Source of the DNA: Flavonifractor porci
Lineage (GTDB): Bacteria > Bacillota > Clostridia > Oscillospirales > Oscillospiraceae
Direction of reading: 5' to 3'
Length of the DNA stretch: 64,000 nt
NCBI RefSeq assembly: GCF_037572415.1
Contig: NZ_JBBHLB010000005.1
Coordinates: forward strand, 150,050 to 214,049
Shown: positions 21,768 through 62,778 of the stretch, one piece after another
Layout: each line of letters opens with the position of its first letter
How positions within the stretch are numbered: position 1 is the first letter of the stretch
Translations under genes and position numbers: made by a program
The notes under the pieces: generated by a model
Seen by the model: only the letters and a program-made list of their open reading frames with translations
Database searches by the model: none
Told to the model about the DNA's origin: nothing

Positions 21768-21788
21768 GGGCCGATGCCCTCATCGGCC

Positions 21789-38600: not shown

Positions 38601-38893
38601 ATTTCTTCCAGAAAATCTTTGGTGTAGCTGTCGATGCCGCTCTCCACCACAACGTTGACTTCTTTGGTCATGGTGAAGGGTACTGCTCCGTCAGGATAGA
38701 CGACCGAATGGGGCACCGGATAAATTTCATAACGACCTTGGTCCTCTGAAAATCCGTTGACAAGACTATCTTCCACCATGCCCTCTTTGGGCGGCTGCAG
38801 CGCAAACGCAGGCGACACGGTGGTAGACAGCATGGTACCGGCCAACAGCAAGGCCAGTACCTGTTTGTTGCCTCTTGACTTCATCCTCTTCAC
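32609..38893 (-). CDS. giant SLH-anchored GH84 beta-N-acetylglucosaminidase with multiple carbohydrate-binding/Ig-like modules
   Basis: 2094 aa with a signal peptide (..TTVSPAFA). GH84 core: YRGVIEGFYGGW...KMNIFVYASKTDKYH and a catalytic-type FHILNDDFG. At least four F5/8-type-C/CBM32-like modules (DGN.., DGDPSNRW, DGDTGTRWSS). Also Big-like repeats, an FN3 (LAASGVTQTGATVTWTPS), a Listeria-Bacteroides repeat (YVFAGWYTD) and three C-terminal SLH repeats. The exact start is ambiguous: GTG at 38893 or ATG at 38884. Confidence 0.85.
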   Translation of the reverse strand: MKRMKSRGNKQVLALLLAGTMLSTTVSPAFALQPPKEGMVEDSLVNGFSEDQGRYEIYPVPHSVVYPDGAVPFTMTKEVNVVVESGIDSYTKDFLEEILADYDMTMTTSSAVVAGKTNILLGVYGDEDKTVADPVPTARTDLFDDSDSTGMGKYDPYMLVADTTNNANGVVTIVGKDTDCVYYGLATLQMMFSSFAGQKFLPVEIEDYSNNLYRGVIEGFYGGWDVENRESVMRMGRDVKMNIFVYASKTDKYHTSDWDKLYPEDQMKDFKRLVEVGKETKVEFVWSVHLGSFFKGGVSTDPSNEAGYAEYNRRFDLLTKKLDQFYAIGVRQFHILNDDFGSGTHADAVNLLNRIMTDYVDKKGDCATIVYCPQHYNVGRAETDNGEELASFKNLDSRIPIYWTGATVNSPVEQKNYDYAYDRSGHDIVTWLNYPCNEHTGGRGIFLGDSQAYLQWAKGLKHHLGIISNPCNKPQVSKVGIYQLMCWNWNNESYDENYLDIWEDCFKYLQPEVYDAYLTIARNVGAAVGSNVPSRFPGRNPFPESDYLKDTMAAVLEKTKNGTLTAEDPDFVKLRDECQHIVEAIAYFKEHCTSAQLIGELNPWLSNLEKVAQAIQPALQAAVAVNSDNLAEAWAQYNAANTEKKSLNTYGGSKRLQPFITDLMEGVSTRIFEELSPQVSHTEPTLYAVIGGVRQEATASNAMLDGNAGSAAKYDVAQQANDYYGVDLGIEKTVRGVSILQGEKDEDSNYYHNATLEYSQDGIQWITLVPEVDSTHITLSDLAIRARYLRLRQTEDSSSKLNVREFTVDTSAGTFTSGAANEQNAMDGNLLTAFNSSAAGELVYTLKKPVHLDSVSVIQNSVSNASVTVKVGDNWETVGTADNTVWVGDTSQLGDISAIKVAWAAGSNVSIAEILLNGRLDEGEAGKAPLPLPSIYTAPNPEIEVEVAFGTELDRAGLPAQGTVTLSNGKEVTLPVVWSGEDYDPTAAKEYTVTGNYVLGDTITNPGGFALTAVVAVRRDSSTPQEPFAGNLALNKAHQASGVSGSSDDPQSWKALDGDPSNRWCAGPAIKETGSVDAPQTPGVEWIIVDLNTGKDGEDLSGTNELTDITLKCYTDKSWPTKYDIYVSDEPFTVQDGKVSGGTKAASASYDPTDQKGHDDQVTVLPEGTSGRYVCVVFNEINKYATGATGISVAELKINGTKTYSAGVGAEENLSLEHPVYASGMELSSGFEPSKSVDGDTGTRWSSNWVGPEVATDSNGAWIVIDLGEDVADVTGISMSYFNKTWSDEYWIQVAGSDYTPQDYSKENLYQTMNNKEALTGQNAKDANAWTTIATVTQSGTESGATHSVAKADFTKPIPAGTRYLRLYFEKGNSVIPRESTCIGLKEVTVTGTRFVAPAEPNVESVKPATATGVLGTAFGDLNLPETVAATLADGTSITLNVTWSDEGYNSNSAEQTLTGTLQCQDPVTNTDGVKAELHLTLTEEPKAVSAAVNPASVTAQQGTAFAELGLPTRAVVEMSDSTFVVCNVAWTESDYAAESEAAQTIHGTLDAVNDLGVTITVERPDTTAPAAPAGLAASGVTQTGATVTWTPSAEADLAGYRVYLNGASDPVADITASTYAFSGLTPNAEYTVTVTAYDRSGNESQPASCTFKTETAVMHHIEYILYNASVDPKTDSVMDGTDLTFKLVPAEGYILPETISVTMGGTALEQGKGYTYDAVTGNVTISNINAEVLIRADAIDPNAPKTVTVTFESNGGSSVPEQTVEVGSTVAEPEAPVREGYVFAGWYTDNIYTTQWNFSDPVNESMTLYAKWEDNGSGGVPSTSYAITVDETDNGTVTSSRTRASKGLTITLTVKSDEGYKLDTITVTDKNGSEVKLTDKGDGKYTFAMPASAVTVKAAFVKDDTPVDTDTPFTDVKADEWFYEAVKYVCDNKLMDGTSSTTFAPLMITNRAMIVTILWRLEGQPKAEATLSFTDVESGVWYTDAVNWAASKGIVKGYSDTVFAPNDTVTREQLATILYRYAESKGYDVSAKGDLTTFADGANTSSWAAEAMEWAVGSGLLSGKDGGKLDPTGTATRVEVATILMRFADSKAE

Positions 38894-39307
38894 ATCTCCT
38901 TTTTAAAAATCGGACCTACTTCCGGCAGGATTGCGTTTACGCCTGCGGATTGGTATCATATCCACCCCTTATTTCTCCCGCCTTTGGCACTCCGGGTCTT
39001 AAAATCTTCGTTCATAACCTCCTTCTTATTTTTCGACACAATAGTCTATATTTAGTTTATCACGGTACCCTACAGCCGCAAGTATGATTTTTTATCATAC
39101 TTTTACTCAGTACAGAACTTTTTTTCAAGGGTATCAAAACTTTAAAACTATTTTAATGAAATTGCTTTCCCATAGTTTTATAGTCGGCATCCATATTCTT
39201 ACCTTAATTGGCCAACCTCTCCCTTGCTTTATACAGCCAGCCTGCGCCTTTCCTTCTTTTCACGCATATCATGTTGCGGGAGCATCTCCCAGAAGGGGGT
39301 AACACGC

Positions 39308-40681
39308 ATGGGTGTTACAAATTCCAACAAACTCACCAATACCGACCACATTGCCTGCGGCGATTCACTGCGTGTAAGCCTGTCCCTGACAGCTGCACCA
39401 GATATTATTTCCAATCCCACTGATATTGTGCTGATTCTGGATCGCTCAGGCAGTATGGCCGGCACACCACTGACCAACATGAAACTGGGTGCAAAAACAT
39501 TTATTGATATCATCGATGAGGCCACCGATAATATGAACGATGGTCAAATCGGTTCCGGCAGCCGCATCGGCATTGTCAGCTTTTCCAGTACCGCTGTGGC
39601 GAACACCCAGCTCATCACCTCAGTGAACACGCTGAAAGACGCTGTGGACAGTCTGAGCGCCTCAGGCCTGACCAACCACGCAGACGCCTTTTCCAAGGCC
39701 ATCCAGCTTTTTGATCCTACCTCCGGCAATGCAAAGGTGATGATCATATTTACCGATGGCAATACTACGGCCGGTGCGCCTCCGGCACCTGTGGCCGCCG
39801 CCGCCCGGGCTGCGGGTATCACCATCTATTGCATCGGCCTGATAGGCTCCGGCGGTCTGGATATTGACGCATTAAACAACTGGGCCACCGACCCGGACGC
39901 TGCACATGTGGCGGTAACGCCCGATGCCGCCGATTTGGAAGACCTTTTCAAAGAACTGGCAGCCAACCTGACCAAGGCAGGCGCAACCAACATTGTAATC
40001 GACGAAATCGTCAACTCCGATTTTATGATCACAAGTATTCTATCTCCCACAAAGGGCTCCGCCGCCATGTTGGACGCACACACTCTGCGGTGGACCATTC
40101 CCGCATTGGGGGTGGATGCCAGCGAGAGCGCTGTGCTTGATTTTTTCATCCGGCATATCGGCCGGGAGCCGGGAACCAAACTGGTCAATCAGTCCATCAC
40201 TTATTCTGATACCGAGGGGAATGTGGTGTCTTTTCCCGCCCCCATGGTAACTGTGGAATGCGACATCGTGGTAACGCCGGAAGCTTGCCCCACGCCAGTA
40301 GATTTTACCGTGGAAGGTTGCACCGACTCGGTCCTGGTCGACCTGGGAGACACCTATTTGGAGTCTCAGGGCCGCATCATACAAACAGACGTCACCATCA
40401 AAAATGTATGTCCCGGAAAACGGATCGCGCTGGCCGCCATTCTCTCGGAAGTGGACGCCAACGGAACAGAATATCCACGGGGCATGAAGGCAATGACCAT
40501 CCCGGCCCACAACTTTCCCACTTGCCGGGACATACAGGTCCGGTGCATCAAATTTGTTGTACCCGAAGACTTGAATGTTTCCGGAACCTCATTTTGCAGT
40601 CCCCGCAGCTTCAAGGCTCGCTTTATCGCCAACAGCATTGATACGGATTACCACTGCTGCGAATCTACGATCACATTATGA
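39308..40681 (+). CDS. von Willebrand factor A domain protein with Cys-rich C-terminal region, no signal peptide seen
   Basis: ATG at 39308 with an AAGGGGG RBS. MIDAS-type motif DIVLILDRSGSMAG plus IIFTDGNT. The C-terminal 150 aa carry about 9 Cys and end in ..YHCCESTITL. Confidence 0.75.
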   Translation: MGVTNSNKLTNTDHIACGDSLRVSLSLTAAPDIISNPTDIVLILDRSGSMAGTPLTNMKLGAKTFIDIIDEATDNMNDGQIGSGSRIGIVSFSSTAVANTQLITSVNTLKDAVDSLSASGLTNHADAFSKAIQLFDPTSGNAKVMIIFTDGNTTAGAPPAPVAAAARAAGITIYCIGLIGSGGLDIDALNNWATDPDAAHVAVTPDAADLEDLFKELAANLTKAGATNIVIDEIVNSDFMITSILSPTKGSAAMLDAHTLRWTIPALGVDASESAVLDFFIRHIGREPGTKLVNQSITYSDTEGNVVSFPAPMVTVECDIVVTPEACPTPVDFTVEGCTDSVLVDLGDTYLESQGRIIQTDVTIKNVCPGKRIALAAILSEVDANGTEYPRGMKAMTIPAHNFPTCRDIQVRCIKFVVPEDLNVSGTSFCSPRSFKARFIANSIDTDYHCCESTITL

Positions 40682-40785
40682 CCCAACTCCCACTGTTTTG
40701 TTTTCACAGCACAGGATCTCTGCTGCAAAACGTTGATCTGCTCTCTTCGCAGGCAATGTCCCCAGTGCAGCATACAAAATAAACA

Positions 40786-40840
40786 AAACGCAGCTACCGC
40801 AAACAGGCAAGCGCCTGATTTCGCGGTAGCTGCTGTTTTT
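40786..40840. terminator. terminator after the vWA gene
   Basis: GCAGCTACCGC ... GCGGTAGCTGC stem (with a nested CAGGC/GCCTG helix) followed by GTTTTT and preceded by AAAA. Confidence 0.7.
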
Positions 40841-41044
40841 GCCCGATAAAGGCGGCTGTAACGGCATGAGATAGGAGCTTCTCAAACGTGTGCGGCGGAC
40901 ACGTAAGGTACAGCGTACAAAGCAAATTTTCACGATACCCTATGCAGCCAGGATATTGTATTGACCGCAGGGCGCTATTAAGATTATTGTGTTGGATTAG
41001 CTTCCTAATTGCAGCAAAAACGGGCGGGTTTCCCCGCCCTTCAA

Positions 41045-41254
41045 TTAGCTTTCATCGTCTTTGATATATTTCATAATATCGCCCACTTCGCAGTCCAGAA
41101 TACGACAAAACACCTCTATGGTATGGGTACTGACACTTTCGTTGCGCTTCAACCTTGTAATCTGTGCCGGGCTGATATTGTATTTCTTTATGAGGGCATA
41201 TTGGGAAATCCCTTTTTCCCGCATGACATTCCATAAGTTGTCGTAAGAAATCAT
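41045..41254 (-). CDS. XRE/Cro-type HTH regulator
   Basis: MISYDNLWNVMREKGISQYALIKKYNISPAQITRLKRNESVSTHTIEVFCRILDC is the HTH_26/Cro-like pattern. A GGGCGGG/CCCGCCC terminator lies at 41018-41045. Confidence 0.8.
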   Translation of the reverse strand: MISYDNLWNVMREKGISQYALIKKYNISPAQITRLKRNESVSTHTIEVFCRILDCEVGDIMKYIKDDES

Positions 41255-41310
41255 AACATTCAAGCCTCGCTCTCTACTTGAATGTTAACCGAAAACGATG
41301 TACAATTAGA

Positions 41311-41328
41311 TTAACCAATATCGGTTAA
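41311..41328. promoter_or_regulatory. inverted repeat operator candidate in the XRE/lipoprotein divergent region
   Basis: TTAACC-AATATC-GGTTAA, with a third TTAACC half-site at 41285-41290. Confidence 0.45.
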
Positions 41329-41353
41329 TATATTTATGTAGGAGGAGACGGAA

Positions 41354-42352
41354 ATGAAAAAAATATTGTTGTTTGTTCTATCAGCGGCTCTCATATTATC
41401 TTTGGCAGCTTGCGGCGGGGACACAACCAGTGACTCCAACGTATCAGGCAGCAATGAAACCAATACGCCAAACAACAGTGGAACACCCGGCAATGATGCT
41501 GATAGCGTTCAAGAAGCAGAGGTACCCAACAACGGGGAGTGGGACGAAATCCTTTGCTCCGGGGACGGCTATCACTTGGTAAAAAAAGAGGTTGATTCCT
41601 ACGATGGCTACAAATTCACACTTGGTGTAGTGGATGATGAGGGCCAGTGGGTACAGGAAATGACCGACACCGGAACTTTTGTAGACGAAGTACGCTTCCG
41701 CGCCGAAGGCAGCAGTGAAACCCTGCGAGACAGTTCCTGCTATATGTATCTGGGAGAAGGCGTGTTTCTTGCTTCTCCAGGTGTGTCCGTATACACAAAG
41801 GACGAAGAACACCGGGTCGGTCCTTGGGAGAACAGCGTATCTTACAGCCCTACTGGACGGGCTGAGGTTGCAATCTGGGAATGCCTTCTTTGGAATGTAA
41901 AAACTAATATGCAGACAGAGATTGACGCATCCAAGATGTCCATGTTCCAGGACGGATACTTGCTGTTCTGCAAAGAGGACGAGTCCGGCAGCGGTACACT
42001 CAGTGCCATGAATACTAACGGCGAAATCACTGAATTCACCTGTAAGTTCTTGCCCAATAAGCCCGGCCACAATTTCCCCGTCTATTCAGAGGGATTGTTC
42101 TATGCCTGCACTGACAAGGGGTCTCGTCCCGGTTTTTTTGACATCTCGGGTAATATGGTCATTGACTTATCGTCGTATGATGTAGGCAGGATACCCTATT
42201 CCAATGAAATGGGAGTAAACGCCCCGTACTTTGAGAATGGGCAGGCTACTATTTTATTCGCCAACAATGCCGGGAGCGTGTTCCAGGCAACTATTGATAA
42301 AACAGGGGCTTTCGTGGGAGAACCTGAAAAAGTAGATGTTTCTGTTTATTAA
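41354..42352 (+). CDS. hypothetical lipoprotein
   Basis: AGGAGG RBS. Signal peptide with lipobox (ILSLAAC-GG). 332 aa with AT-richer codon usage than the flanks. No family recognised. Confidence 0.7.
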   Translation: MKKILLFVLSAALILSLAACGGDTTSDSNVSGSNETNTPNNSGTPGNDADSVQEAEVPNNGEWDEILCSGDGYHLVKKEVDSYDGYKFTLGVVDDEGQWVQEMTDTGTFVDEVRFRAEGSSETLRDSSCYMYLGEGVFLASPGVSVYTKDEEHRVGPWENSVSYSPTGRAEVAIWECLLWNVKTNMQTEIDASKMSMFQDGYLLFCKEDESGSGTLSAMNTNGEITEFTCKFLPNKPGHNFPVYSEGLFYACTDKGSRPGFFDISGNMVIDLSSYDVGRIPYSNEMGVNAPYFENGQATILFANNAGSVFQATIDKTGAFVGEPEKVDVSVY

Positions 42353-42409
42353 GCACAAAAAGAGAGGGCGGTACACCATCAGTGCCGTCCTCTCTCATTT
42401 TGTATTCCA

Positions 42410-42826
42410 TTGTTATCAAGCGCTCTCCTGCTCCTTCTTCTCTTCCTGCTTCTTCTGGAAGCCAGCAAGATCAATCACCTTGGAAGCATTGGAACTAAAA
42501 TCGGGCTGCTCCTTGTACTTTGGGAACTGGGTCTCAAACCAATTCCGCACAAACTTGTAGGGGATGGGCTGCTCCAGGGAGCAGGTCTTGACCACCTCAG
42601 ACTGGGCCAACAGCTCACCAGCATTCTGAAACACGCCCATATACTTCTCCATGTTTGCGCAAGTCAGGTTCTTGTAGGTGCGTTTGCTGGCATTTTTCTT
42701 GATGGTCTTGGTCGCTATCTGAGTACTGGGGAAGTCCTGGCGGTAAGCTCTCCACTCTCTGTATTCAGGAGGGCCGAAGATACGGGTCTGCTTCTTGAAA
42801 GCCTTGCCGTGGTGGGCAATCCCCAT
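42410..42826 (-). CDS. hypothetical ORF whose 5' end is a relic rubrerythrin C-terminus (status uncertain)
   Basis: The first codons, IAHHGKAFKKQTRIFG, parallel the [16 protein letters not shown] end of the neighbouring rubrerythrin. The rest is Lys-rich with no family recognised. An internal ATG (MEKYMGV..) is an alternative start. Confidence 0.35.
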
Positions 42827-42940
42827 GGGACAAATCCCATGGGGACCCCAATGATTTCATCTGCTCGGGCGGAGTGAATCCGCCCGGCTTCGAGGTTTCA
42901 GCTTCGCCAAAACCCTCGGTGACGAGGCCCGCCACGGCAA
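42821..42940 (-). repeat. multi-hairpin repeat element, copy 3 (3' of reverse rubrerythrin)
   Basis: CCCCATGGGA-CAAA-TCCCATGGGG hairpin, GGGGACCCC, a TTCAC-loop hairpin and a GGTTTC..AAACC hairpin. 42921-42940 is the exact reverse complement of rubrerythrin 43022-43041. Confidence 0.85.
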
Positions 42941-42974
42941 AAAAGATCCCGGTCCGTTGGACCGGGATCTTTTA
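42939..42974 (-). terminator. intrinsic terminator of reverse rubrerythrin
   Basis: Minus strand reads AAAAGATCCCGGTCC-AACG-GACCGGGATCTTTTTT, 11 nt after the stop. Confidence 0.85.
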
Positions 42975-42984
42975 GGTATTCAGA

Positions 42985-43527
42985 TTAGCCGAAGTAACGC
43001 TTCAGCAGGCCCTCGAAAGCCTTGCCGTGGCGGGCCTCGTCGCGAGCCATCTCGTGGACGGTGTCGTGGATGGCGTCCAGGTTGTGCTCCTTGGCCAGCT
43101 TGGCCAGCTCGAACTTGCCGGCGGTAGCGCCGTTCTCGGCGTCCACACGCATCTCCAGGTTCTTCTTGGTGGAATCGGTCAGAACCTCACCCAGCAGCTC
43201 GGCAAACTTGGCGGCGTGCTCGGCCTCCTCCAGAGCGGCCTTCTCCCAGTACAGGCCGATCTCGGGGTAGCCCTCACGATGAGCCACACGGCTCATGGCC
43301 AGATACATACCGACCTCGGAGCACTCGCCCTCAAAGTTCATGCGCAGGCCCTGGATGATCTCCTCGGGAGCGCCCTTGGCAACACCGACAACGTGCTCAG
43401 CAGCCCAGGTACGATCGCCACCCTGGAGCACGAACTTCTCCTTGGGAGCCTTACAGATGGGGCAGAAATCAGGGGCGGAATCCCCCTCGTGAACATAACC
43501 GCAAACAGAGCAGACCCACTTTTTCAT
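42985..43527 (-). CDS. reverse rubrerythrin (N-terminal rubredoxin-like domain plus ferritin-like diiron domain)
   Basis: N-terminal [12 protein letters not shown]...CPICKAPK rubredoxin fold, followed by E..EXXH diiron motifs ([32 protein letters not shown]). Confidence 0.9.
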
Positions 43528-43604
43528 GTGATTTTCCTCCTAATTTAATGATTTATTTTATTCAATTTCGGGTTAGCTGGAAGTGCTAATCAGTAATGAT
43601 TATC

Positions 43605-43617
43605 ATTTCTGATATTA
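43605..43617. promoter_or_regulatory. Fur-family (PerR-like) box candidate upstream of reverse rubrerythrin
   Basis: AATGAT-T-ATCATT, a perfect 6-1-6 palindrome about 80 nt upstream of the start. It resembles Fur/PerR-type AT-rich boxes. Confidence 0.45.
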
Positions 43618-43683
43618 AGATAGCACAACTTAACTCTGCCGTCAAGTGTTTTTTTCAAATTCCGAAAACTTTTTTATTTCACC

Positions 43684-43842
43684 TTACTTTTCATGTTTGC
43701 GGCGGTAACGGCGGTGTCCCAGCACCAGAATAAAAACGCCTGCCGCTGCCAGGATTCCGCCCAATACAATCTGGGCGATGATGGGACCATACATGATAGA
43801 TATCACACGATCTATACTACTACTATAAAAGCCGAGATCCAT
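43684..43842 (-). CDS. small membrane protein (52 aa), below the track threshold
   Basis: ATG at 43842 with a GGGGGATAAGGAA RBS, 12 nt after the upstream XRE-TM gene stop. MDLGFYSSSIDRVISIMYGPIIAQIVLGGILAAAGVFILVLGHRRYRRKHEK has one TM and a basic tail. Confidence 0.5.
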   Translation of the reverse strand: MDLGFYSSSIDRVISIMYGPIIAQIVLGGILAAAGVFILVLGHRRYRRKHEK

Positions 43843-43854
43843 TTCCTTATCCCC

Positions 43855-44226
43855 CTATGGCAGACATTCGGGCAACTTCATAAACTCCCACAGGCCATTT
43901 ATGGTCAAAAGCTGCAGCAGCCCCCGTATCAACAGATAGCTCCCCACTGCCAGCGGTAAAATCCCCAGCAGATACCATCTGGGTTCTCTCCTCTCAGGTG
44001 CCGCCTCTGTGGGCAGGCCCGGATCAGGCCTCTCCCCTAACAGCAGCTGGTCTGTTGTGATCCCAAATAGTTTGGCCAAGGCCACGATCTTATCCAATTC
44101 CGGCTGGGCAGCGTCACCCTCCCACTTGCTCACCGCCTGGCGGGACACTCCCAGCAGTTCGGCCAACCCTTCCTGAGACAGGCCCGCGCGTTTGCGGTAA
44201 TTCAGAATCCGCTCTCCCAAGGTCAT
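43855..44226 (-). CDS. XRE-family HTH protein with C-terminal transmembrane segment
   Basis: LGERILNYRKRAGLSQEGLAELLGVSRQAVSKWE HTH motif, followed by WYLLGILPLAVGSYLLIRGLL as a TM. Confidence 0.8.
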   Translation of the reverse strand: MTLGERILNYRKRAGLSQEGLAELLGVSRQAVSKWEGDAAQPELDKIVALAKLFGITTDQLLLGERPDPGLPTEAAPERREPRWYLLGILPLAVGSYLLIRGLLQLLTINGLWEFMKLPECLP

Positions 44227-44416
44227 CCTTGCTCGCCATCCTTTCTCCCGGCGTCACCGGACAGTTCCAGACTATCAAACGATCCGGTTTCATACCATAA
44301 AGTTTGGCTTGAACTTCCACAACCGCTGGTTGTCAAAAGGGTTTTCAAGCAAAATCATCATAACATAGCCTGCCCAGCGTATTCAAGCATCCCTTGGTAA
44401 AGATCCGGCATAACAG

Positions 44417-44453
44417 AAAACGGGCGCGCTGGGATATACAGCGCGCCCGTTTT
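44417..44453. terminator. bidirectional intrinsic terminator
   Basis: AAAACGGGCGCGCTG-GGATATA-CAGCGCGCCCGTTTT. Confidence 0.85.
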
Positions 44454-44474
44454 GAGCGGTTTTTATCAGGCAAT

Positions 44475-45068
44475 TTATGTGTCCGCAAGTGCCTGGGCGG
44501 CAGCCTTGATTACAGCCACGCAGGCATCGATACCGATACGGCTGTTGACGCACAGATCATACTCCCGGCTCTGTCCCCAACGGCCGGTGGCAAAATAATT
44601 ATAATAGGAGGCTCTTGCCTTGTCCTGGCGGATAACATAGCTCTCCAGATTGTTCTCCTGTACACCGTACTCCTCCCGAGCCCGGCGGATCCGCTGATCC
44701 AGAGGTGCATTGACAAATACCTTCAGGCAGCGGGGGTGATCCCGAAGGATATAGTCGGCGCAGCGGCCCACAATGACACAGGATTCCCTGTCAGCGGCCT
44801 CCTTGATAACTTTAGCCTGCGCGATAAACACCTGATCGGGAACCGATGGCGTCTGTACGCTGGTATAGAGATCATAGAGAAAACTATTGGTGGGGCGCTG
44901 ATGCTCGGCATTGCGGATAAAGTGCTCGGAGAAGCCTGTCTTTTTTGCCACATCGGAGATCAGCTGTTTGTCGTAAAATGTGATGCCCATCTCTTCGGAC
45001 AACTGCTTGGCAATAAGCCGTCCGCCGGAACCGTACTCACGACCGATGGTAATGACGATGTGTTTCAT
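44475..45068 (-). CDS. cytidylate kinase-like family protein (P-loop)
   Basis: ITIGREYGSGGRLIAKQLSEEMGITFYDKQLI N-terminus; 197 aa. Confidence 0.75.
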   Translation of the reverse strand: MKHIVITIGREYGSGGRLIAKQLSEEMGITFYDKQLISDVAKKTGFSEHFIRNAEHQRPTNSFLYDLYTSVQTPSVPDQVFIAQAKVIKEAADRESCVIVGRCADYILRDHPRCLKVFVNAPLDQRIRRAREEYGVQENNLESYVIRQDKARASYYNYFATGRWGQSREYDLCVNSRIGIDACVAVIKAAAQALADT

Positions 45069-45305
45069 AAGAACACCTCCTATCCTAATTTAAGTATAAT
45101 GCTTTTTTCTCCTTCCGTCAAAGAGTTTTCATTTTCATATCTTATATTTATTATCCTATGTTAATATGCAAAATTTATTACGGATTTCGATTGACTTTCC
45201 GCCAAACCTGAGTATAATAGTTGCCATCTGGCCCATATGTCCAAAGGGTCTTTTCCCTCCGCAAGGAAACTGAAAAAGAGAGCACAAAAAGAAAGGAGTA
45301 TCCAT

Positions 45306-45509
45306 ATGTTTATTCTGGGTATCATTCTGATCATCGCCGGTATTGGCTGTGCCGGTTACGGTTTTATGCAGAACAACAGCTTGGAGGCCCAGTTCACCAG
45401 CATCATGAGCAGCGGTACCGCTAACCCCGGCACCATGTTTATCGTCATTGGCGTGATCCTGCTGGTAGTCGGTATCATCCTCTGTGTGGTCGGCAAAAAG
45501 AAGAATTAA
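45306..45509 (+). CDS. small two-TM membrane protein (DUF3185-like)
   Basis: AAAGGAG RBS. MFILGIILIIAGIGCAGYGF...MFIVIGVILLVVGIILCVVGKKKN. The track start at 45237 lacks an RBS. Confidence 0.6.
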   Translation: MFILGIILIIAGIGCAGYGFMQNNSLEAQFTSIMSSGTANPGTMFIVIGVILLVVGIILCVVGKKKN

Positions 45510-47120
<1,611 letters not shown>

Positions 47121-47146
47121 GCAACGCCCCCTTATGCTGACTTTCC

Positions 47147-47182
47147 AAGGAGGGACGCGGCAGCGCCGCGTCCCTCCTTTTT
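47147..47182 (+). terminator. intrinsic terminator immediately after gdhA (inside the inserted segment)
   Basis: AAGGAGGGACGCGG-CAGCG-CCGCGTCCCTCCTTTTT. Confidence 0.85.
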
Positions 47183-47332
47183 CGTCGGCCACCGGGGCCC
47201 CATCAAAGATGGGGCGGCGCGCAAGCGCCGTACAAGCGTTTTACCGGCAGGCAAAACCTTAATGCCGGGCGGATTCATTCCGCCCGAGCAGCTCCAATCA
47301 TGGGGTCCCCAACCTGCCCCGCAGGTTGGGGC
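47183..47332 (+). repeat. multi-hairpin repeat element, copy 4 (3' of gdhA)
   Basis: It starts with CGTCGGCCACC, the reverse complement of gdhA 47081-47091. Then come hairpins GCCCCATC/GATGGGGC, GGCGC/GCGCC, GTTTT/AAAAC and CGGGCGGA-TTCAT-TCCGCCCG, followed by GGGGTCCCC and CCCCAACCTGC/GCAGGTTGGGG. Confidence 0.9.
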
Positions 47333-47370
47333 TGGCCGACGCTATGATCTGGCAGGGCGTGTCCTACTAA
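47333..47370 (+). repeat. perfect 38-nt second copy of the gdhA 3' end including the stop
   Basis: 47333-47370 is identical to 47083-47120 (TGGCCGACGCTATGATCTGGCAGGGCGTGTCCTACTAA). Confidence 0.95.
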
Positions 47371-47382
47371 ACTTGAAACAAA

Positions 47383-47420
47383 AATGGCACCCATCCTTTA
47401 CAACGGATGGATGCCATTTT
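47383..47420 (+). terminator. second (presumably ancestral) gdhA terminator
   Basis: ATGGCACCCATCC-TTTACAAC-GGATGGATGCCAT followed by TTTTTC, 13 nt after the duplicated stop. Confidence 0.7.
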
Positions 47421-49110: not shown

Positions 49111-50475
49111 TCAGCGCTGATCCATGGGCACATAATCCGTATGGCTGCCCACATACTTATAGGCAGGACGGATGATCTTACCCATATTGATAAGCTCCTC
49201 AATGCGGTGGGCGGACCAGCCAGCCACACGGGCCATGGCAAAGATAGGCGTATACAGCTCCAGAGGCAGATCCAGCATATGGTACACAAAGCCGGAATAG
49301 AAGTCCACATTGGCGGATACGCCCTTGTACATCTTCCGCTCTCCGGAGATGACCTCGGGACCCAGCCGGGCCACCAGGGAATAGAGCTCATATTCCTCAT
49401 TGCGGCCCTTCTCACGGGACAGCTTCTCCACAAAGGAGTGGAGCAGGTTGGCACGGGGATCGGACAGAGAGTAAACCGCATGCCCCATGCCGTAGATCAG
49501 GCCCGCCTTGTCGAAGGCCTGCTTGTTGAGCAGAGCCTGCAGGTAATGACGTACTTCGTCCTCATCTTTCCAGTCCCGCACGGTCTCTTTCATGTCATCA
49601 AACATCTGCACCACCTTGATGTTGGCGCCGCCGTGCTTGGGACCCTTCAGAGAGGCCAGAGCCGCCGCCATACAGGAATAGGTATCGGTACCGGAGGAGG
49701 TGACCACATGGGTAGTGAAGGTGGAGTTGTTGCCGCCGCCGTGCTCGGCATGGAGTGTCAGACAAATATCCAACACATGGGCCTCCCAGAAGGAGTAGGA
49801 AGAATCCGCCCGCAGCAGGGAGAGGATGTTCTCCGCCGCCGACAGTTCCGGCCGGGGGGCGTGGATGTACAGGCTGCTGCCGCTCTTATAGTTCCAGGCT
49901 TGATAGCCATAGACACTGAGCATGGGGAACAGGGCAATAAGCTGGACACACTGGCGCATGACATTGGGCAGGGAGATGTCATCCGCCCGGTCATCATAGG
50001 AGGCCAGATTGAGCACACTCCGGGCCAGGGAATTCATGATATCATGGCTGGGCGCCTTCAGGATCACATCCCGCACAAAGTTGTTGGGCAGGGAACGATA
50101 ATAGGACAGCTGCTTGGAAAAGCCATCCAGCTCCTCCTTGGTGGGCAGCTTGCCCAGCAAAAGCAGATAGGCTGTCTCCTCAAAGCCGAAGCGGCCCTCC
50201 TTCAGAGCGCCTGCCACCAACTGCTCCACGTCCACACCGCGGTAATACAGCTTGCCTTCGCAGGGAATCTCCTGTCCATCCACAACCTTTTTGGCTACAA
50301 TATCAGAGACTTCAGTCAGTCCGGCAAGCACGCCCTTGCCGTTCAGGTCACGCAGGCCCCGCTTCACATCATATTTGACAAAATCGCCCGGATCAATGCA
50401 GCTGTTTTCCTGTGCCAAAGCCGCCAGGCGCTCAAGTTCAGGCGTAGTATTGCAGTAATTCGGATTGCTTGCCAT
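49111..50475 (-). CDS. citrate synthase (citrate/2-methylcitrate synthase family)
   Basis: 454 aa. LHAEHGGGNNSTF and GMGHAVY catalytic His motifs, plus the GPRLARV-like region MARVAGWSAHRIEE. Confidence 0.9.
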   Translation of the reverse strand: MASNPNYCNTTPELERLAALAQENSCIDPGDFVKYDVKRGLRDLNGKGVLAGLTEVSDIVAKKVVDGQEIPCEGKLYYRGVDVEQLVAGALKEGRFGFEETAYLLLLGKLPTKEELDGFSKQLSYYRSLPNNFVRDVILKAPSHDIMNSLARSVLNLASYDDRADDISLPNVMRQCVQLIALFPMLSVYGYQAWNYKSGSSLYIHAPRPELSAAENILSLLRADSSYSFWEAHVLDICLTLHAEHGGGNNSTFTTHVVTSSGTDTYSCMAAALASLKGPKHGGANIKVVQMFDDMKETVRDWKDEDEVRHYLQALLNKQAFDKAGLIYGMGHAVYSLSDPRANLLHSFVEKLSREKGRNEEYELYSLVARLGPEVISGERKMYKGVSANVDFYSGFVYHMLDLPLELYTPIFAMARVAGWSAHRIEELINMGKIIRPAYKYVGSHTDYVPMDQR

Positions 50476-50653
50476 GAAAAACCTCCATTCTCTTCACATA
50501 CCCAGGGGACAACCCCTTTGCCAATCAGTTCATTGCTAACTATTATGGCATAAAAATGTTACCACAATATGAATCGCTCTCGATTTTTTCATTGAAATTT
50601 TTCTTCTATAATGGACCGACCCGCTGCGGCAAGGCCGGACAGCGGGTCGGAAT

Positions 50654-51577
50654 TTAGAACAGGTCTTTCTTCTTCAGGATGATGCCAGTCACCAGAATCA
50701 CGCCCAGAGACAGCACCAGCGGGAACCACCAGAACTGATCCAGGGGCAGATTGGCTACATTCATACCGTAGAAGCTGAAGAAAATATTGGGGATGGTCAG
50801 CAGGATCGTGATGGAGGTCAGCACCTTCATGATCACGTTCAGGTTGTTGGAGATCACGGAGGCAAAGGCGTCCATCATGCCGGAAATAATGGAGGAATAA
50901 ATATTGGCCATCTCAATAGCCTGGCGTACCTCGATAAGCACGTCCTCCAGCAGGTCATGGTCCTCTTCGTAGAGGGTAATGATGCGGCCGCGGAGGATCT
51001 TCTCCAGGGTGACCTCATTGGCTTTCAGTGAGGTATTAAAGTAAACCAGTGACTTTTCCAGGTCCAGCAGCTGGATCAGTTCCTTGTTCCGCTGGGACTT
51101 GTAAAGCTGACGCTCCATGTAGTTGTAGATCTTGTCGATCTGCTTCAGGTATTGCAGGAAGCGTTTAGCCACCTGAAGCAGCATATAGAGGATGAACTGG
51201 GTCCGCTTCTGGGTATCCGCATTGCGTACCAGCCCGTCCTGGAAATCCTTCAGAATAGAGGTCTCTTTCAGGCAAACGGTAATGATGTGCTTCTCAGTGA
51301 CGATGATGCCCAAAGGCAGGGTGGAATACACCACCGCGTCGTCCTTCTCCACCGAGGGAGCGTCAATGATAATGAGGGTCTGCCCCTCTTCGGTATCAAT
51401 ACGGGAGGTCTCTTCTTCGTCCAGCGCGGCCCGCAGGAAAGAGGGCTCCACGCCCAGGGTTACCGCTACCGTATTCAGCTCATCCTCGCTGGGATAGGTC
51501 AGGTTGACCCAGCAGCCGTCCTGCACGGCATCCAGCTTGGTCATTTTCCCATTGATGGTCTTGTGAATGGAAAGCAA
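50654..51577 (-). CDS. corA: CorA-family magnesium/cobalt transporter
   Basis: C-terminal two TMs with the FYGMNV (GMN) motif. A TTG start gives the family-typical MLSIHKTINGK... N-terminus. Confidence 0.9.
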   Translation of the reverse strand: MLSIHKTINGKMTKLDAVQDGCWVNLTYPSEDELNTVAVTLGVEPSFLRAALDEEETSRIDTEEGQTLIIIDAPSVEKDDAVVYSTLPLGIIVTEKHIITVCLKETSILKDFQDGLVRNADTQKRTQFILYMLLQVAKRFLQYLKQIDKIYNYMERQLYKSQRNKELIQLLDLEKSLVYFNTSLKANEVTLEKILRGRIITLYEEDHDLLEDVLIEVRQAIEMANIYSSIISGMMDAFASVISNNLNVIMKVLTSITILLTIPNIFFSFYGMNVANLPLDQFWWFPLVLSLGVILVTGIILKKKDLF

Positions 51578-51860
51578 TTAACTCACGCCTTTCTGGGCGC
51601 AGGGACCAAAAAGGCATAAAAATCCCCGCACACCTATTGTCTCGCCGATCCGCTCCACTTATACCAACGGACCGAAAAAGGGCACAGGCGTGCGGGCGCT
51701 CCCGGTCATGCCGGTCAAACGCCGATCCAATACGCCGTGCCAGTTGTGTTGCATTCTCGACTCAGAGGGTCACCGCTCACGGCGCATATCACTCCCTTAT
51801 GACATAATCTGTCTTTCCAAAACCAGCCGACCAATGTCGCTGGTCCTTGAATCGGTCTTT

Positions 51861-51889
51861 ATTATATGCTACTTTCAGCTGAATTGCAA
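51861..51889 (-). promoter_or_regulatory. strong sigma-A-type promoter about 275 nt upstream of corA
   Basis: Minus strand reads TTGCAA (51889-51884), 17 nt, TATAAT (51866-51861). Confidence 0.65.
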
Positions 51890-52020
51890 GCCTGCACTCT
51901 TGCCGCCTCTCCTTTTCTTCCACAATAACGCCCAGCTCCAGACAAATTCCTTCCTCCAAAATACATTGCTGGACGTCCCGTCCATTCAGCACAGATGGCC
52001 AGCTTATATGATTCTGTCCT

Positions 52021-52707
52021 TTATGGAACTACAAAGCGGTAGCCCAGTCCACGGACCGTCTGGATATATTGGGGCTTGGATGGGTTTTCTTCGATCTTTG
52101 CGCGGATTCGGTTGATATAAACCATAATGGCATTTTCGTCAATGATAGCCGACCCCCATACCAGGTCGTAGATCATATCCTTGGAAAAAATATGATTCAC
52201 ATTGTCCATAAACAGCTTGATCATGGCGTTTTCCTTGGAGGAGAGAACCACCTCTTCTCCGTTTTTATAGAAACGGAGCGTGCTGGTATTATACTGAAAG
52301 GGGCCGGCGGTAATGATCTGATCCGCTCCGGGCAGATTCCCCCGGCTGCGGCGGATCAGCGCTTTTACCTTTGCTGCAAGGGTAACCGGATTGAGGGGTT
52401 TTGTGATATAGTCGTCTGCACCAATATCCAGACCATAGAGGGTATCATAATCCTCTTTGCGTCCGCTGACGATCATAATGGGGATCTTGCCTCCGTTGCG
52501 CCGGATATGCTGGATCACCTGAAACCCATCCATACCGGACAGATTGATATCCAGCAAAAGCAGGTCGTACTTTTTCTTTGCCAGCATCTCAAGGCACTGT
52601 TCCCCGGAATCGGCGGTATCCGCCTGAATGCCGTTGCTGCTGATCACTTTATACAGCATGGTAAGAACAGCTCTGTCGTCATCAACAATGAGTACAAGAT
52701 CCGCCAA
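52021..52707 (-). CDS. OmpR-family response regulator
   Basis: TTG start at 52707 with an AGGGGGA RBS. Receiver domain (VLIVDDD...LLLLDINLSGMDG) plus a winged-helix output (YIQTVRGLGYRFV). The track N-terminal extension is non-homologous. Confidence 0.9.
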   Translation of the reverse strand: MADLVLIVDDDRAVLTMLYKVISSNGIQADTADSGEQCLEMLAKKKYDLLLLDINLSGMDGFQVIQHIRRNGGKIPIMIVSGRKEDYDTLYGLDIGADDYITKPLNPVTLAAKVKALIRRSRGNLPGADQIITAGPFQYNTSTLRFYKNGEEVVLSSKENAMIKLFMDNVNHIFSKDMIYDLVWGSAIIDENAIMVYINRIRAKIEENPSKPQYIQTVRGLGYRFVVP

Positions 52708-52770
52708 GGTGCATCCCCCTTTACACAGCTTGCTTCTTCCAGTATGATATCCAGTATAAAAGACGAGTAT

Positions 52771-54552
52771 ATGTTTGGCAAGGGGAGAATTTACTTGAAA
52801 CCGCCCATCAAACTGGAGCGCAAATTCCTGATGATTATATTGCTGGCTTTCGCCCTCATATTTGCCGGAATTTTTATGGTATTTCGTGTTTTCCACCAAT
52901 ACGAAAATATGATGATCCAAAACGAAGACCGGCAGCTTTTGGGGTTGTCCCGCTCGGTGGACCGCAGTATCACCAGCTATATTCAGCAATTTTCCCGGGA
53001 TCTGAAGCACACGCTGCAGCGCGACGGACTGGAAGAGGCGGAGACTGCTTATCGGAACACTGGAAGCATGGAAGAAATTGCTTTGCAAATCGAGGCAACC
53101 ATCCTTTCAGAGCATCCCTTGACATACGACATCCTGTGTATCGACAACGGAACCATTCTTTACTCCTCCCGCGGAAAAACAGACTATGTGTTTCCGCCAA
53201 ATGCCGGTCTGGAGGGAGACGTCGATATCCGCCCCTGCGTCGATGCGTCAGGAACGATCTACCTCTCCTTCCAGAAAAGCATCCAAAGCGATCTGCGATA
53301 CGCCGTACTGATCGAGCTTACGGAATTTTATCAGGCTGTGGCGGGAAATCTGATCGTCGGTACCCAAGACCGTATTCTGCTTCTGGACGCAGGGGGACAC
53401 ACACTCTTATATCAAACGGAAGAAGGCCCCGCGGCCTCACTTGTCCAGAATGATCGGGAGGGCGTGATCGATCAGGACGAGTTAAATGCGCTTCTGAACT
53501 GCCAAAGCCGCGGGGAAGATGTATCTCTTTTCTACCAGGCTCAGACCAGCAAAGATGCAAAAGCTTATACGGCGCGCATGGCAGCCATTCCGGCCGCCGG
53601 AAACAATGGTGTGTTTGCAGTGGGGGCCTCCCTCAATTATGAAACCATCAAACGTCCCATCCATATGTCCGCCATACGGCTTGCCGCCTACAGCAGCATG
53701 ATCATACTCGGAATTTTACTGTTGGCTGGCTCCATCCTGCTGGTAGCCCGGCGCAATGCGCGGACCCAGCAGGAAGTGATCATGCTGCGGGAACAAAATC
53801 TCGCCCTGGAGGCGGTCACAAAAAAGTCCCAGGCTCTGGCCCACCATCAGCGGCTGGAGATCATTGGCACCCTGACCTCCAGCATTGCCCATGAATTCAA
53901 CAACCTTCTGACCCCCATTATGGGTTACTCCATTCTGGTTCTGGAAAAACTGCCGCCTGACGCCGAAGAGACCTATGACAATGTACTGGAAATTTACGAG
54001 GCTTCCAGAAAGGCAAAGACCATTATCTCCCGCCTCTCAGACCTCTCCCGCAAAAATACCCCCCTCACTTTTCAGTATGTCTCGCCGGATGATCTGGTGC
54101 TGCGTGTTCTGGAGATCGCCGCGCCGGCGAAACCGCCCAAGGTACAGGTCAGCAGCAAGCTTCAGTGCCGGCACCTCTGGGTGCACGGCAATGAGATCCA
54201 GCTGTCCCAAATGCTGCTCAACCTGATTTTGAACGCTTACCAGGCCATGGAGACAGACGGCGGGACCCTTACCGCCACAACTGAACAGGAGGATGACTGG
54301 ATCTGCTTCCATGTGGCCGATACAGGCCCGGGAATCGCCCCCTCGCTGCTGGAAACGATCTTTGAGCCCTTCTTTACCACCAAGGAACGAGGAAAAGGAA
54401 CCGGGCTGGGTCTGGCCATTGTGCAGCAGGTCGTAGAGGAACACCACGGTACTGTCTGCGTCCACAGCGAATTGGGACAGGGAACCACATTCACCGTTCG
54501 TCTGCCCCTCCCCGCCCAGGAGGATGGACACAGCCATAACAGCATATCATAA
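52771..54552 (+). CDS. sensor histidine kinase with a large extracytoplasmic sensor domain
   Basis: TM1 (FLMIILLAFALIFAGIFMVF), an approx. 250-aa loop and TM2. H-box SSIAHEFNNLLTPI. HATPase N/G boxes (LNLILNAYQAM, DTGPGI, GTGLGL). The start is ATG 52771 or TTG 52795. Confidence 0.9.
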   Translation: MFGKGRIYLKPPIKLERKFLMIILLAFALIFAGIFMVFRVFHQYENMMIQNEDRQLLGLSRSVDRSITSYIQQFSRDLKHTLQRDGLEEAETAYRNTGSMEEIALQIEATILSEHPLTYDILCIDNGTILYSSRGKTDYVFPPNAGLEGDVDIRPCVDASGTIYLSFQKSIQSDLRYAVLIELTEFYQAVAGNLIVGTQDRILLLDAGGHTLLYQTEEGPAASLVQNDREGVIDQDELNALLNCQSRGEDVSLFYQAQTSKDAKAYTARMAAIPAAGNNGVFAVGASLNYETIKRPIHMSAIRLAAYSSMIILGILLLAGSILLVARRNARTQQEVIMLREQNLALEAVTKKSQALAHHQRLEIIGTLTSSIAHEFNNLLTPIMGYSILVLEKLPPDAEETYDNVLEIYEASRKAKTIISRLSDLSRKNTPLTFQYVSPDDLVLRVLEIAAPAKPPKVQVSSKLQCRHLWVHGNEIQLSQMLLNLILNAYQAMETDGGTLTATTEQEDDWICFHVADTGPGIAPSLLETIFEPFFTTKERGKGTGLGLAIVQQVVEEHHGTVCVHSELGQGTTFTVRLPLPAQEDGHSHNSIS

Positions 54553-60146: not shown

Positions 60147-60682
60147 ACATAAAACAGTTGATCCAGCCTGTGGCTGCCCTTCTCATCGCCGCCCTGGTTT
60201 TGTTCCTGGGCACCACCGTGCTCTCCCCCATTGCTCAGGAAAACAAGGAGCAGGAGCTGCAGTCCATCCTCTCCACCCTTCTGCCCGGCGCAGAGTCCTT
60301 TGTCCAGGAAGAGTACACCGGCGAGGACGAGGCTATCTCCGCGGTCTACAAGGCGGATAACGGCTATGTGATCGAAACGGTCACCGCCGGATATGCCGGC
60401 GATATCACCATGCTGGTAGGCGTCAATCTGGACGGCACCATTGCCGGTCTGGTGGTGCGGGATATGCAGGAGACCTACGGGCTTGGCATGGAGGCCCTCT
60501 CCGACGTATCCTTCCTGTCTCAGTTCCTCTGGAATGGCACCACCTTTACCGTAGGCGAAAATGTGGACGCCCTCACCGGCGCCACCGTTACCTCCAAGGG
60601 GGTGGCCAAGGCTGTTACCTCAGCCAGTGCCTTTGTAACCGGCGCGGATATTGGCTCCAGCGCCACCGAATGGGGAGGTTGA
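60143..60682 (+). CDS. rnfG: RnfG-like FMN-binding subunit
   Basis: GTGA overlap with rnfD and an AAGGAGG RBS. N-terminal TM. Canonical flavinylation motif VDALTGATVTSKGV. Confidence 0.9.
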   Translation: MNIKQLIQPVAALLIAALVLFLGTTVLSPIAQENKEQELQSILSTLLPGAESFVQEEYTGEDEAISAVYKADNGYVIETVTAGYAGDITMLVGVNLDGTIAGLVVRDMQETYGLGMEALSDVSFLSQFLWNGTTFTVGENVDALTGATVTSKGVAKAVTSASAFVTGADIGSSATEWGG

Positions 60683-60686
60683 TGTG

Positions 60687-61124: not shown

Positions 61125-61152
61125 CCCCGCAAGCTTCCTTGCCTTCACGTTT

Positions 61153-61196
61153 AAAAAGAGAAAGCCTTGAAACTGTAGTTTCAAGGCTTTCTCTTT
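61153..61196. terminator. strong bidirectional terminator ending the Rnf-like operon
   Basis: AAAAAGAGAAAGCCTTGAAACT-GT-AGTTTCAAGGCTTTCTCTTT. Confidence 0.9.
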
Positions 61197-61201
61197 CCGT
61201 T

Positions 61202-61615: not shown

Positions 61616-61629
61616 GAGTCCCCCTTATC

Positions 61630-62683: not shown

Positions 62684-62778
62684 TGCAAATACCTCCAAAT
62701 CAAATAAATGTGAAGCAGACTGGTTCACATCCAATCCGCAACATCCAAATCCACATGGCGCTGGATCCTTCTTGTTTC

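Follow-up and report, generated by a model that had tools for sequence, protein, structure and literature searches.

Integron cassettes, the attC sites of which are recombined as folded single-stranded DNA (ssDNA) by IntI, conserve a structure while leaving the sequence free, and one strand folds; the cassette start (the 3′ part of R′) is complementary to the internal R″, and the next sequence starts alike. IS200/IS605 insertion sequences, palindrome-associated transposable elements (PATEs) and repetitive extragenic palindromic (REP) elements or REPINs with their RAYT transposases are small, hairpin-structured, high-copy, strand-specific elements that are mobilised in trans and often lie at gene ends, and in this group a short internal guide near the foot of a hairpin base-pairs with cleavage or target sites. 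The present analysis concerns a multi-hairpin element that occurs in four copies in a 64,000-nucleotide stretch of Flavonifractor porci (Clostridia, Oscillospiraceae; assembly GCF_037572415.1, contig NZ_JBBHLB010000005.1, positions 150,050 to 214,049 of the forward strand), referred to throughout as the window. Each copy is accompanied by a guide-like segment and by a second, displaced copy of the host gene end, and the element is tentatively read as the scaffold of a guide-bearing mobile cassette.

Group II introns find their targets by pairing between exon-binding and intron-binding sequences (EBS-IBS), home to intact alleles and, in class C, insert after terminators. In IS110 elements, a structured non-coding segment, the bridge RNA, has variable loops that are complementary to and covary with the target; two loops read target and donor, an adjacent gene encodes a DEDD recombinase, and the core is 2 nt (PMC11208160). 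Diversity-generating retroelements (DGRs) hold two near-identical gene 3′ ends with a GC-rich hairpin beside them, and both the islands and phages that target tRNA or tmRNA genes and the C-terminal displacement of polymorphic toxins supply a gene with a new end and leave the old end orphaned downstream.

Fold and Covariation

The four copies, as read from the sequence, have as host genes those for GdhA, SMC, a 434-aa GIDA-family protein (TrmFO) and rubrerythrin (rbr):

47194-47332, plus strand: element copy in gdhA
15097-15257, minus strand: element copy in smc
21858-22005, minus strand: element copy in trmFO
42821-42984, minus strand: element copy in rbr

The initial annotation of the window had described the segment at 47194-47332 and its three further copies, and the sequence is as it described; its quotations of hairpin A, hairpin B and the terminal hairpin are likewise correct, save that hairpin A of the gdhA copy ends in CTTA rather than CTTG, which gives an outermost C.A mismatch. 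All four copies carry GGGG(T/C)(C/T)CCC before the CCCC...GGGG terminal hairpin, as annotated. A covariance model (R1), trained on copies from other genomes and then run on the window, scores the four at 88-101 bits, with a next-best window score of 16 bits and at most 16 bits on the reverse strand of the four loci. The pattern ATTCAY-N20-28-GGGGYYCCC occurs 4 times in the window compared with 0.04 expected, and the folding energy of the gdhA copy is -100.3 kcal/mol, whereas shuffles give -67.6 +/- 4.7 (z = -7.0).

A pattern scan of species-representative genomes returned at least 115 contigs with at least 126 element copies, the window included, and 110 distinct copies from other genomes formed the covariation set. 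Since the retrieval pattern fixed AAAAYCTYRA, ATTCAY and GGGGYYCCC, these positions were excluded as evidence; no constraint had been placed on the hairpin B stems, on the terminal hairpin or on hairpin A's loop and upper part. RNAalifold recovered hairpin A, hairpin B and the terminal hairpin from the 110 copies, and compensatory double changes were found in 17 of the 26 pairs counted in that structure. Within the three hairpins, 97.5% of the paired cells can pair, compared with 80.1% in shuffles, double-change cells number 479 against 140, and the covariation score is 0.46 against 0.146; none of 500 shuffles reached the observed value on any covariation measure, and shifting the 3′ partners by 1-3 columns brought pairing down to 33-52%. 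The annotated claim that the stems covary, structure being kept while sequence is free, thus held with significance once more copies were aligned. Individual pairs illustrate the range of types:

Alignment columns 197/211: GC 71, CG 36
Alignment columns 198/210: CG 58, GC 47
Alignment columns 200/208: AU 55, GC 49
Alignment columns 248/275: GC 50, CG 43, AU 11

The terminal-hairpin pair 245/278 is G.U in 60 copies, A-U in 29, G-C in 15 and A.C in 2. Because G.U far exceeds A.C and the reverse strand does not fit R1, the fold is strand-specific. In 76 of the 103 copies whose flanks were examined, hairpin A has another hairpin, H0, on its 5′ side, which covaries as well (CGCCGC-RAGT-GCGGCG, CGCCGG-RAGT-CCGGCG, CGCGCC-GART-GGCGCG), and the unpaired nucleotides of the GATTCAY loop and the linker are strongly conserved. 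Given that structure is conserved and sequence is free, one strand is under selection to fold into a multi-hairpin junction, closed by a helix between the guide-like segment and its target (AS:T, see below).

Comparison with Rfam 15, which covers small RNAs, ribozymes, group I and II intron domains, HEARO and omega RNAs and tRNA-like RNAs, gave 0 matches at the gathering threshold across the whole window, and in permissive mode (E <= 10) over 47100-47400 the best score was 25 bits against a threshold of 79, on a terminator and not on the core. An ordinary 3′ untranslated region (UTR) hairpin or intrinsic terminator was rejected, as the terminal hairpin runs into the displaced gene end and has no T-run. 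Large insertions occupy the loop of the terminal hairpin at the loci designated L037 (oriented 395-520), L027 and L048, the insert in the latter two being duplicated target, and at L098 (oriented 1215-1290) an insertion of ~70 nt without an open reading frame (ORF) lies in the hairpin A loop.

Unit Layout and the Displaced Gene End

Three features beyond those annotated initially define the unit: a displaced duplicate of the gene end, an antisense guide segment (AS) and the 5′ hairpins H0 and H-1. A unit begins with D1, the in-gene copy of the gene end, which carries the stop codon or, in antisense copies at 5′ ends, the start codon and ribosome-binding site, followed by U, a spacer of 0-60 nt that sometimes contains a terminator. 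Next comes AS, 8-16 nt just 5′ of H0 or H-1 and reverse complementary to the start of the duplicated sequence D, then one or two GC hairpins (H-1/H0), hairpins A and B, the GGGGYCCCC linker, the CCCC...GGGG terminal hairpin and a junction n of 1-3 nt, after which the second copy of the gene end, D2, follows. The core of the scaffold is denoted S and the guide-matching site at the unit start T′. From T′ to the end of the terminal hairpin, units measure a median of 214 nt (interquartile range 203-228). The window copies are resolved as follows:

gdhA, plus strand
47083-47120: D1, in-gene last 38 nt including the stop TAA (repeat search, GdhA domains)
47082-47091: T′ guide-matching site GTGGCCGACG (sequence)
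47149-47182: segment U, an intrinsic-terminator-like hairpin and T-run between stop and guide
47183-47192: guide-like AS, CGTCGGCCAC, the reverse complement of GTGGCCGACG; pairs with 47333-47341 as closing helix
47197-47229: hairpins H-1 (47197-47215) and H0 (47216-47229)
47228-47331: core S (R1 88.5 bits; the initially annotated segment), with hairpin A at 47234-47260, hairpin B at 47263-47290, the linker with GGGGTCCCC and the terminal hairpin at 47307-47331
47332-47370: junction n (C, 47332) and D2 (47333-47370), 100% identical to D1, then an apparent resident terminator

smc, minus strand
15258-15316: D1, last 59 nt including the stop TGA (repeat search)
15199-15240: AS GGCTGACG (15240-15233), matching gene sequence CGTCAGCC, then H-1 and H0
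15097-15202: core S (R1 97.1 bits), hairpin B of the AAATCG... class
15036-15096: junction n (GA, 15096-15095) and D2, the displaced end (15094-15036)

trmFO, minus strand
22006-22075: D1, last 70 nt of the GIDA-family gene including the stop TAA (repeat search)
21958-21999: AS TCCGCTTGCC (21999-21990), matching gene sequence GGCAAGCGGA, then H0 (21972-21958)
21858-21961: core S (R1 95 bits)
21780-21857: junction n (AA) and D2, the displaced resident end, 86% identical to D1 with mostly synonymous differences and its own stop kept at 21782-21780

rbr, minus strand
42985-43035: D1, last 51 nt including the stop TAA
42927-42970: terminator-like hairpin and T-run (42970-42939), directly followed by AS TTGCCGTGGCGGGC (42940-42927), a perfect complement of D1 GCCCGCCACGGCAA with one mismatch to D2
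42821-42923: core S (R1 100.6 bits)
42797-42820: junction n (ATT) and a shortened D2 remnant GCCCACCACGGCAAGGCTTTC, then unrelated lower-GC sequence

In the window, the functional copy D1 ends at the stop codon just upstream of the element, and D2 starts 1-3 nt past the terminal hairpin and repeats the last 24-70 nt of the host gene. The two smc copies (D12) are 87% identical over 63 nt; by eye their differences are silent and fall at third codon positions, although the automated count placed the four that it counted at codon position 1, its frame probably being mis-assigned. The rubrerythrin D2 remnant (42797-42817) runs into a lower-GC stretch, in which a 133-codon open frame without similarity to rubrerythrin follows; a later insertion or rearrangement may have cut this copy.

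The same arrangement recurs across genomes, D2 beginning 0-4 nt past the terminal hairpin in 94 of the 103 copies examined for it. These 94 copies with a D1/D2 duplication are the basis of all guide and target counts below. D1 and D2 are 77-100% identical, and D ranges from a minimum of 28 nt to the 100-nt ceiling of the measurement and is longer in tandem arrays. In the 40 sense-oriented copies whose D1 and D2 differ, third codon positions hold 124 mismatches, first positions 27 and second positions 17, and transitions outnumber transversions by 127 to 41. This third-position bias argues that D1 and D2 evolved as coding DNA in separate lineages, one of them having been imported with the element, so that the sequence comparison assigns a foreign origin to one of the two gene-end copies; a simple target duplication decaying in place was ruled out by the same concentration of differences at third codon positions. 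In 38 of 77 copies the homology stops no more than 6 nt from the stop codon, and in antisense copies at gene 5′ ends it ends just beyond the ribosome-binding site. At 113 mismatches D1 has T/A and D2 has C/G, and at 72 the converse holds, the displaced copy being the more GC-rich at differing sites.

The Guide-like Segment

Complementarity between AS and the in-gene site far exceeds that obtained when flanks are swapped between copies: a helix of at least 7 contiguous Watson-Crick bp is present in 57 of 94 copies (6.9 expected) and one of at least 9 bp in 36 of 94 (1.2 expected). In 59 copies the pairing reaches further into the uninterrupted in-gene copy than into D2, compared with 9 for the converse, and 1-3 nt upstream of the duplicated sequence are included; what AS matches is therefore the intact target, read across the insertion point. 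Within orthologous families, AS and target covary (TGGAC/GTCCA versus CGGAC/GTCCG; L003 versus L017 and L074). The helix has no wobble enrichment, the gain being 0.51 for G.T and 0.47 for A.C. Naive gdhA alleles of relatives keep GGTGGCCGAC in the coding sequence but lack both AS and scaffold, which makes AS a part of the element and the target a native sequence. Within the host gene, the cassette directly adjoins the guide-matching sequence on its 5′ side, and the resident end D2 has thus been shifted downstream; since a replacement end comes with the cassette, the gene remains intact.

Natural inverted repeats as targets, in which the hairpin region would be a target-site duplication (TSD), were rejected on the naive gdhA alleles that have no AS and on an estimated chance supply that is too low, ~17 per 3-Mb genome for stems of at least 12 bp; the H0 hairpin beside AS is also a conserved module of the element and not host sequence. 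The interior of the terminal hairpin was tried as a second guide and discarded (6.1 observed against 5.1 under the null, the outliers being tandem copies).

In ~25 of the 42 strong-guide units AS begins 0-11 nt past the stop codon, and in ~10 of the 42, such as the gdhA and rbr units of the window, directly after the T-run of a terminator; an intrinsic terminator lies between gene and AS in at least 15 of the 94 units. The pile-up of AS starts 0-1 nt past the stop may reflect compaction between two selected features, or else a mechanistic signature. At the other junction, the native target is G-rich, with G at -1 in 66 and at 0 in 55 of the 94 copies, and the 1-2 nt that follow GGGG, mostly C or A, are not those of the native sequence; the junction nucleotides n are mostly shared within target families.

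As to function, the initial annotation had offered a choice between several kinds of functional RNA and a hairpin-recognised ssDNA substrate. A guide scaffold or a hairpin-recognised recombination substrate is favoured by the present data, whereas a plain 3′-UTR stabiliser or small RNA is disfavoured, because terminators precede the element in those 15 or more units and some copies are antisense.

Range and Target Diversity

All matches listed belong to the Oscillospiraceae and cover at least 9 named genera (Flavonifractor, Pseudoflavonifractor, Intestinimonas, Oscillibacter, Dysosmobacter, Lawsonibacter, Flintibacter, Ca. Galloscillospira and Ca. Enterenecus) together with unnamed metagenome-assembled genomes. 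The 94 copies sort into 49 target families. Insertion has been recurrent: smc has been struck at three separate positions in three lineages, L020 holds a younger unit nested upstream of an older, diverged one at the same gene end, and whole units form tandem arrays at L013, L034, L052, L102 (three units), L108 and L139. Similar scaffolds, for example those with GCRCGGCG...GCCGGGY terminal hairpins, lie on unrelated targets, so retargeting outpaces the divergence of the scaffold.

For orientation, only manually checked cases were used, shadow ORFs being common in GC-rich DNA. At least 40 of the 94 copies (up to 77 by a looser open-frame test) are sense-oriented at gene 3′ ends, antisense copies occur at gene 5′ ends in L015, L046, L075, L093 and L112, and L027 and L048 are antisense at 3′ ends. 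The gdhA clade contains full units in the window and in L139 and 3′-truncated relics without D2 in L117, L122, L119 and L129; occupancy is patchy, a relative at 81% identity being occupied and relatives at 88% and 84% being naive. In another clade, at ~79-80% identity (L127, L130-L134, L136, L137 and L140), what follows gdhA is a promoter-like TTGACA...TATAAT with a tRNA-like sequence, in place of the element; this clade was used solely as naive context.

Outside the retrieval pattern, L104 (minus strand, ~oriented position 6765) has an H0-type hairpin CGCGCCGAGTGGCGCG, a different hairpin A and a GAATTCATTT loop; this divergent subfamily means that the family is wider than the at least 126 copies counted. 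The contig of L118 ends 19 nt past the gdhA stop and that of L119 within the element. As would be anticipated for a repeat present in many copies, metagenome contigs tend to terminate at the element or shortly before it, and copy numbers taken from assemblies will therefore be too low. An unrelated small repeat of ~140 nt, with GTCGGGGCTSTGCCCCGAACCCC and TTTTTGAAAAAA motifs and AT-rich surroundings, adjoins the element in two genomes (L028, ~3979-4115 and 2791-3036; L105, ~7264-7490), and the element copies of these two loci have no gene-end duplication.

Comparison with Described Systems

In topology, the integron cassette is the closest system, with its order corresponding to T′...AS-S and then T, and the pairing of guide and cleavage site in IS200/IS605 is also close. 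An integron attC site consists of one imperfect hairpin that has extrahelical bases and R boxes of fixed sequence (RYYYAAC/GTTRRRY), whereas the element is a multi-hairpin junction in which the paired segment is target-specific and 8-16 nt long, and its cargo is a gene end of 28-100 nt rather than an ORF. Identity with attC was rejected because AS and T differ at every target (49 families), no GTTRRRY consensus is present and the junction is G-rich; an integron array was rejected because the copies are dispersed in housekeeping genes, the window ORFs scanned contain no recombinase, and neither IntI nor attI is present. The IS200/IS605 group, unlike the element, uses guides of 4-5 nt and a fixed tetra- or pentanucleotide target, makes no target duplication and carries no gene end. 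It was set aside because 94 of 103 copies are flanked by a target duplicate of 28-100+ nt and the targets vary; no associated Y1 transposase or RAYT gene was present in the 8-kb loci scanned around the copies.

Compared with group II introns, the element is small (~150 nt), has no domain V/VI and no intron-encoded protein, and duplicates a gene end rather than being spliced; a scaffold of ~105-150 nt against an intron minimum of ~600 nt, together with the lack of any Intron_gpII or group-II-D1D4 match in Rfam, excluded this class. In contrast to IS110, a single guide lies 5′, the duplication is long and no gene is adjacent. DGRs were rejected because the mismatches are not adenine-specific (A in D2 43/245, in D1 52/245) and are mostly transitions, of all kinds and concentrated at third codon positions, because the 14 window ORFs scanned include no reverse transcriptase and no Avd lies nearby, and because the repeats of the element are much shorter. 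Islands and phages are kb-scale, carry their own integrase and use one fixed target, and toxin loci recombine in long conserved regions, whereas the element forms units of ~214 nt on at least 49 targets. [quoted passage not shown] Full-text literature searches retrieved no description of such an element.

Proposed Mechanism and Alternative Explanations

That the element is the scaffold of a small, non-autonomous, guide-bearing mobile cassette is a tentative reading, to which somewhat less than an even chance is given. Equally guarded is the broader proposal of a previously unknown class of programmable mobile element, with a scaffold of ~150 nt and a guide derived from its target and subsequently matched to it. 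Such a class would insert a cassette that rewrites the gene end while the gene is kept functional, a natural guide-directed 'write-in' system that would act via ssDNA, or via RNA and complementary DNA (cDNA), with a trans-acting enzyme in gut Oscillospiraceae. Briefly, the scaffold would be the surface that an enzyme recognises, the gene for this enzyme lying elsewhere in the genome, the guide would pair with one target strand and thereby fix the insertion point, and the cassette, once excised or copied, would enter the target as a single strand in its folded form. We infer mobility via a dedicated enzyme, and likewise the nature of the intermediate and the rise of new guides. The slightly favoured route would have ssDNA handled by a structure-specific recombinase or an HUH-type enzyme, because terminators separate D1 from the scaffold in at least 15 of the 94 units, copies occur antisense and the guide helix is strictly Watson-Crick; its logic would resemble that of integron attC cassettes, of the folded single-stranded attP of phage CTX and of IS200/IS605.

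Several observations weigh against a mobile cassette of this kind. The 14 window ORFs scanned include no recombinase or reverse transcriptase as a candidate enzyme, only housekeeping genes, and no autonomous copies were seen, L028 and L105 sharing only the element and another small repeat. No kb-scale, gene-carrying cassettes were found within 7 kb of the copies, the search of viral contigs yielded 0 copies, and no excised or circular form was seen. There is no strict before/after pair of near-identical genomes, the naive gdhA alleles coming from relatives at 76-88%. In ~40% of copies the guide helix has 6 bp or fewer. The orientation of the window copies follows the host gene and not the direction of replication, the GC skew being uniform and copies lying on both strands, which speaks against the lagging-strand template being strictly preferred, as it is by IS200/IS605. 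In L004, L012, L047, L054 and L058, with near-identical D pairs, the D2 side also has U and AS and sometimes H0, and in the second unit of L012, H0 is joined directly to a third, diverged D copy without hairpins A, B and terminal; these layouts are not predicted by 'one cassette, one insertion'. Similar scaffolds on many targets would also call for a templated acquisition of AS whenever a new guide arises.

The same cassette could instead move through RNA, a route that is doubtful taken by itself and nearly as likely as the ssDNA route. A transcript with guide and scaffold would direct nicking of the target, and the nicked strand would prime reverse transcription from the 3′ terminal hairpin; the cDNA would span scaffold, guide and gene-end copy, and homology with the target would resolve its far end. 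Such a route is retrohoming in outline and resembles the prime-editing guide RNA (pegRNA), in which spacer and primer-binding site are mutually complementary, as AS and the flank just past the scaffold are here. Changes in the stems that run from G-C through G.U to A-U, with G.U dominating one position, fit an RNA, and the G-rich native junction, where the element ends in GGGG, could provide microhomology for priming. The seamless left junction and the abrupt end of homology at the stop or past the ribosome-binding site fit resolution by homology, the tandem arrays fit template jumping, and AS stands right after a terminator T-run, the end of a terminated host mRNA, or 0-11 nt past the stop, although this tight spacing is also explicable by deletion of a useless spacer. 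However, neither a reverse transcriptase nor a nuclease lies near any copy, in the surrounding loci or among the window ORFs; terminators between D1 and AS, together with the antisense copies, leave no obvious sense transcript over D1-U-AS-S; wobble pairs are not enriched in the AS:target helix; and n is shared within target families rather than random. A self-cleaving or self-processing RNA, cut at the unit boundaries by the AS:T helix, circularised and copied back to DNA like eukaryotic retrozymes, meets the same transcription problems and has no ribozyme match in Rfam even at E <= 10. The units of ~214 nt in tandem arrays, the helix adjoining the unit boundary and the strongly conserved unpaired GATTCAY loop and linker speak for it, and it is nevertheless the least supported explanation and a very improbable one.

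It is also conceivable, if rather unlikely, that no dedicated machinery exists. The fold would then serve the host or its transcript, as a 3′-end structure, an antisense regulator or a protein-binding RNA, and rare founding events followed by slippage, gene conversion and homologous recombination would alone account for duplications, arrays and spread. A D-E-D block could, by this reasoning, be transferred to a naive allele by a double crossover in the coding flanks, the abrupt boundaries from 100% to 0% homology fit gene conversion between adjacent repeats, and the AS:T′ pairing is maintained and covaries in orthologous families as a cis-acting RNA helix would. The degenerate copies without D2 between stop and terminator in the gdhA relatives L117 and L122, and the share of copies that are sense-oriented at 3′ ends, agree with this explanation. 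Left unexplained, however, are 49 targets each with a matching guide, the three independent smc positions and the nested insertion of L020, as well as the constant start of D2 within 0-3 nt of the terminal hairpin, the antisense copies and the terminators that separate the element from the mRNA; moreover, the founding events would still require a mechanism that writes a target-complementary AS.

Other Features of the Window

The GC content of the window is 0.50-0.52 at 38000-46000, 50000-54000 and 60000-64000, compared with 0.58-0.63 elsewhere. On the minus strand, 32609-38893 encodes a 2094-aa ORF with GH20b/NAGidase, F5/8 type C, Big_4, fn3, Listeria-Bacteroides repeat and SLH domains, probably a cell-wall-anchored beta-N-acetylglucosaminidase. 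Direct repeats in coding sequence at 55956-56241 and 56424-56709, with a spacing of 468 nt and 73-77% identity over 167 and 94 nt, resemble a domain that was duplicated internally. The GC-rich imperfect tandem repeats within ORFs at 23369-23501 and 9772-9897, with 15-48 nt spacing, are probably low-complexity coding repeats.

Implications

Even if it spreads by recombination only, the element would still be a new, very abundant and strongly covarying motif absent from Rfam. The family can be filed among structured non-autonomous mobile elements, with a substantial chance that it forms a new class. These elements import foreign gene-end alleles, probably break metagenome assemblies, contigs ending at them, and could confound the annotation of gene ends.

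If the guide reading is true, insertion sites would be chosen by 8-16 bp of base pairing and retargeting would be frequent, as the 49 targets among 94 copies and the similar scaffolds on different targets suggest, and the spare gene end would spare essential genes such as smc, trmFO and gdhA. This combination is undescribed for MITEs, REP elements, integron cassettes, IS200/IS605, IS110 and group II introns, and would point to an enzyme with programmable, structure-dependent insertion activity. For the bacteria themselves, abundant members of the human and animal gut, the finding means that core genes repeatedly have their last 10-30 codons and 3′ UTR or terminator replaced or, in other cases, their 5′ end and ribosome-binding site.

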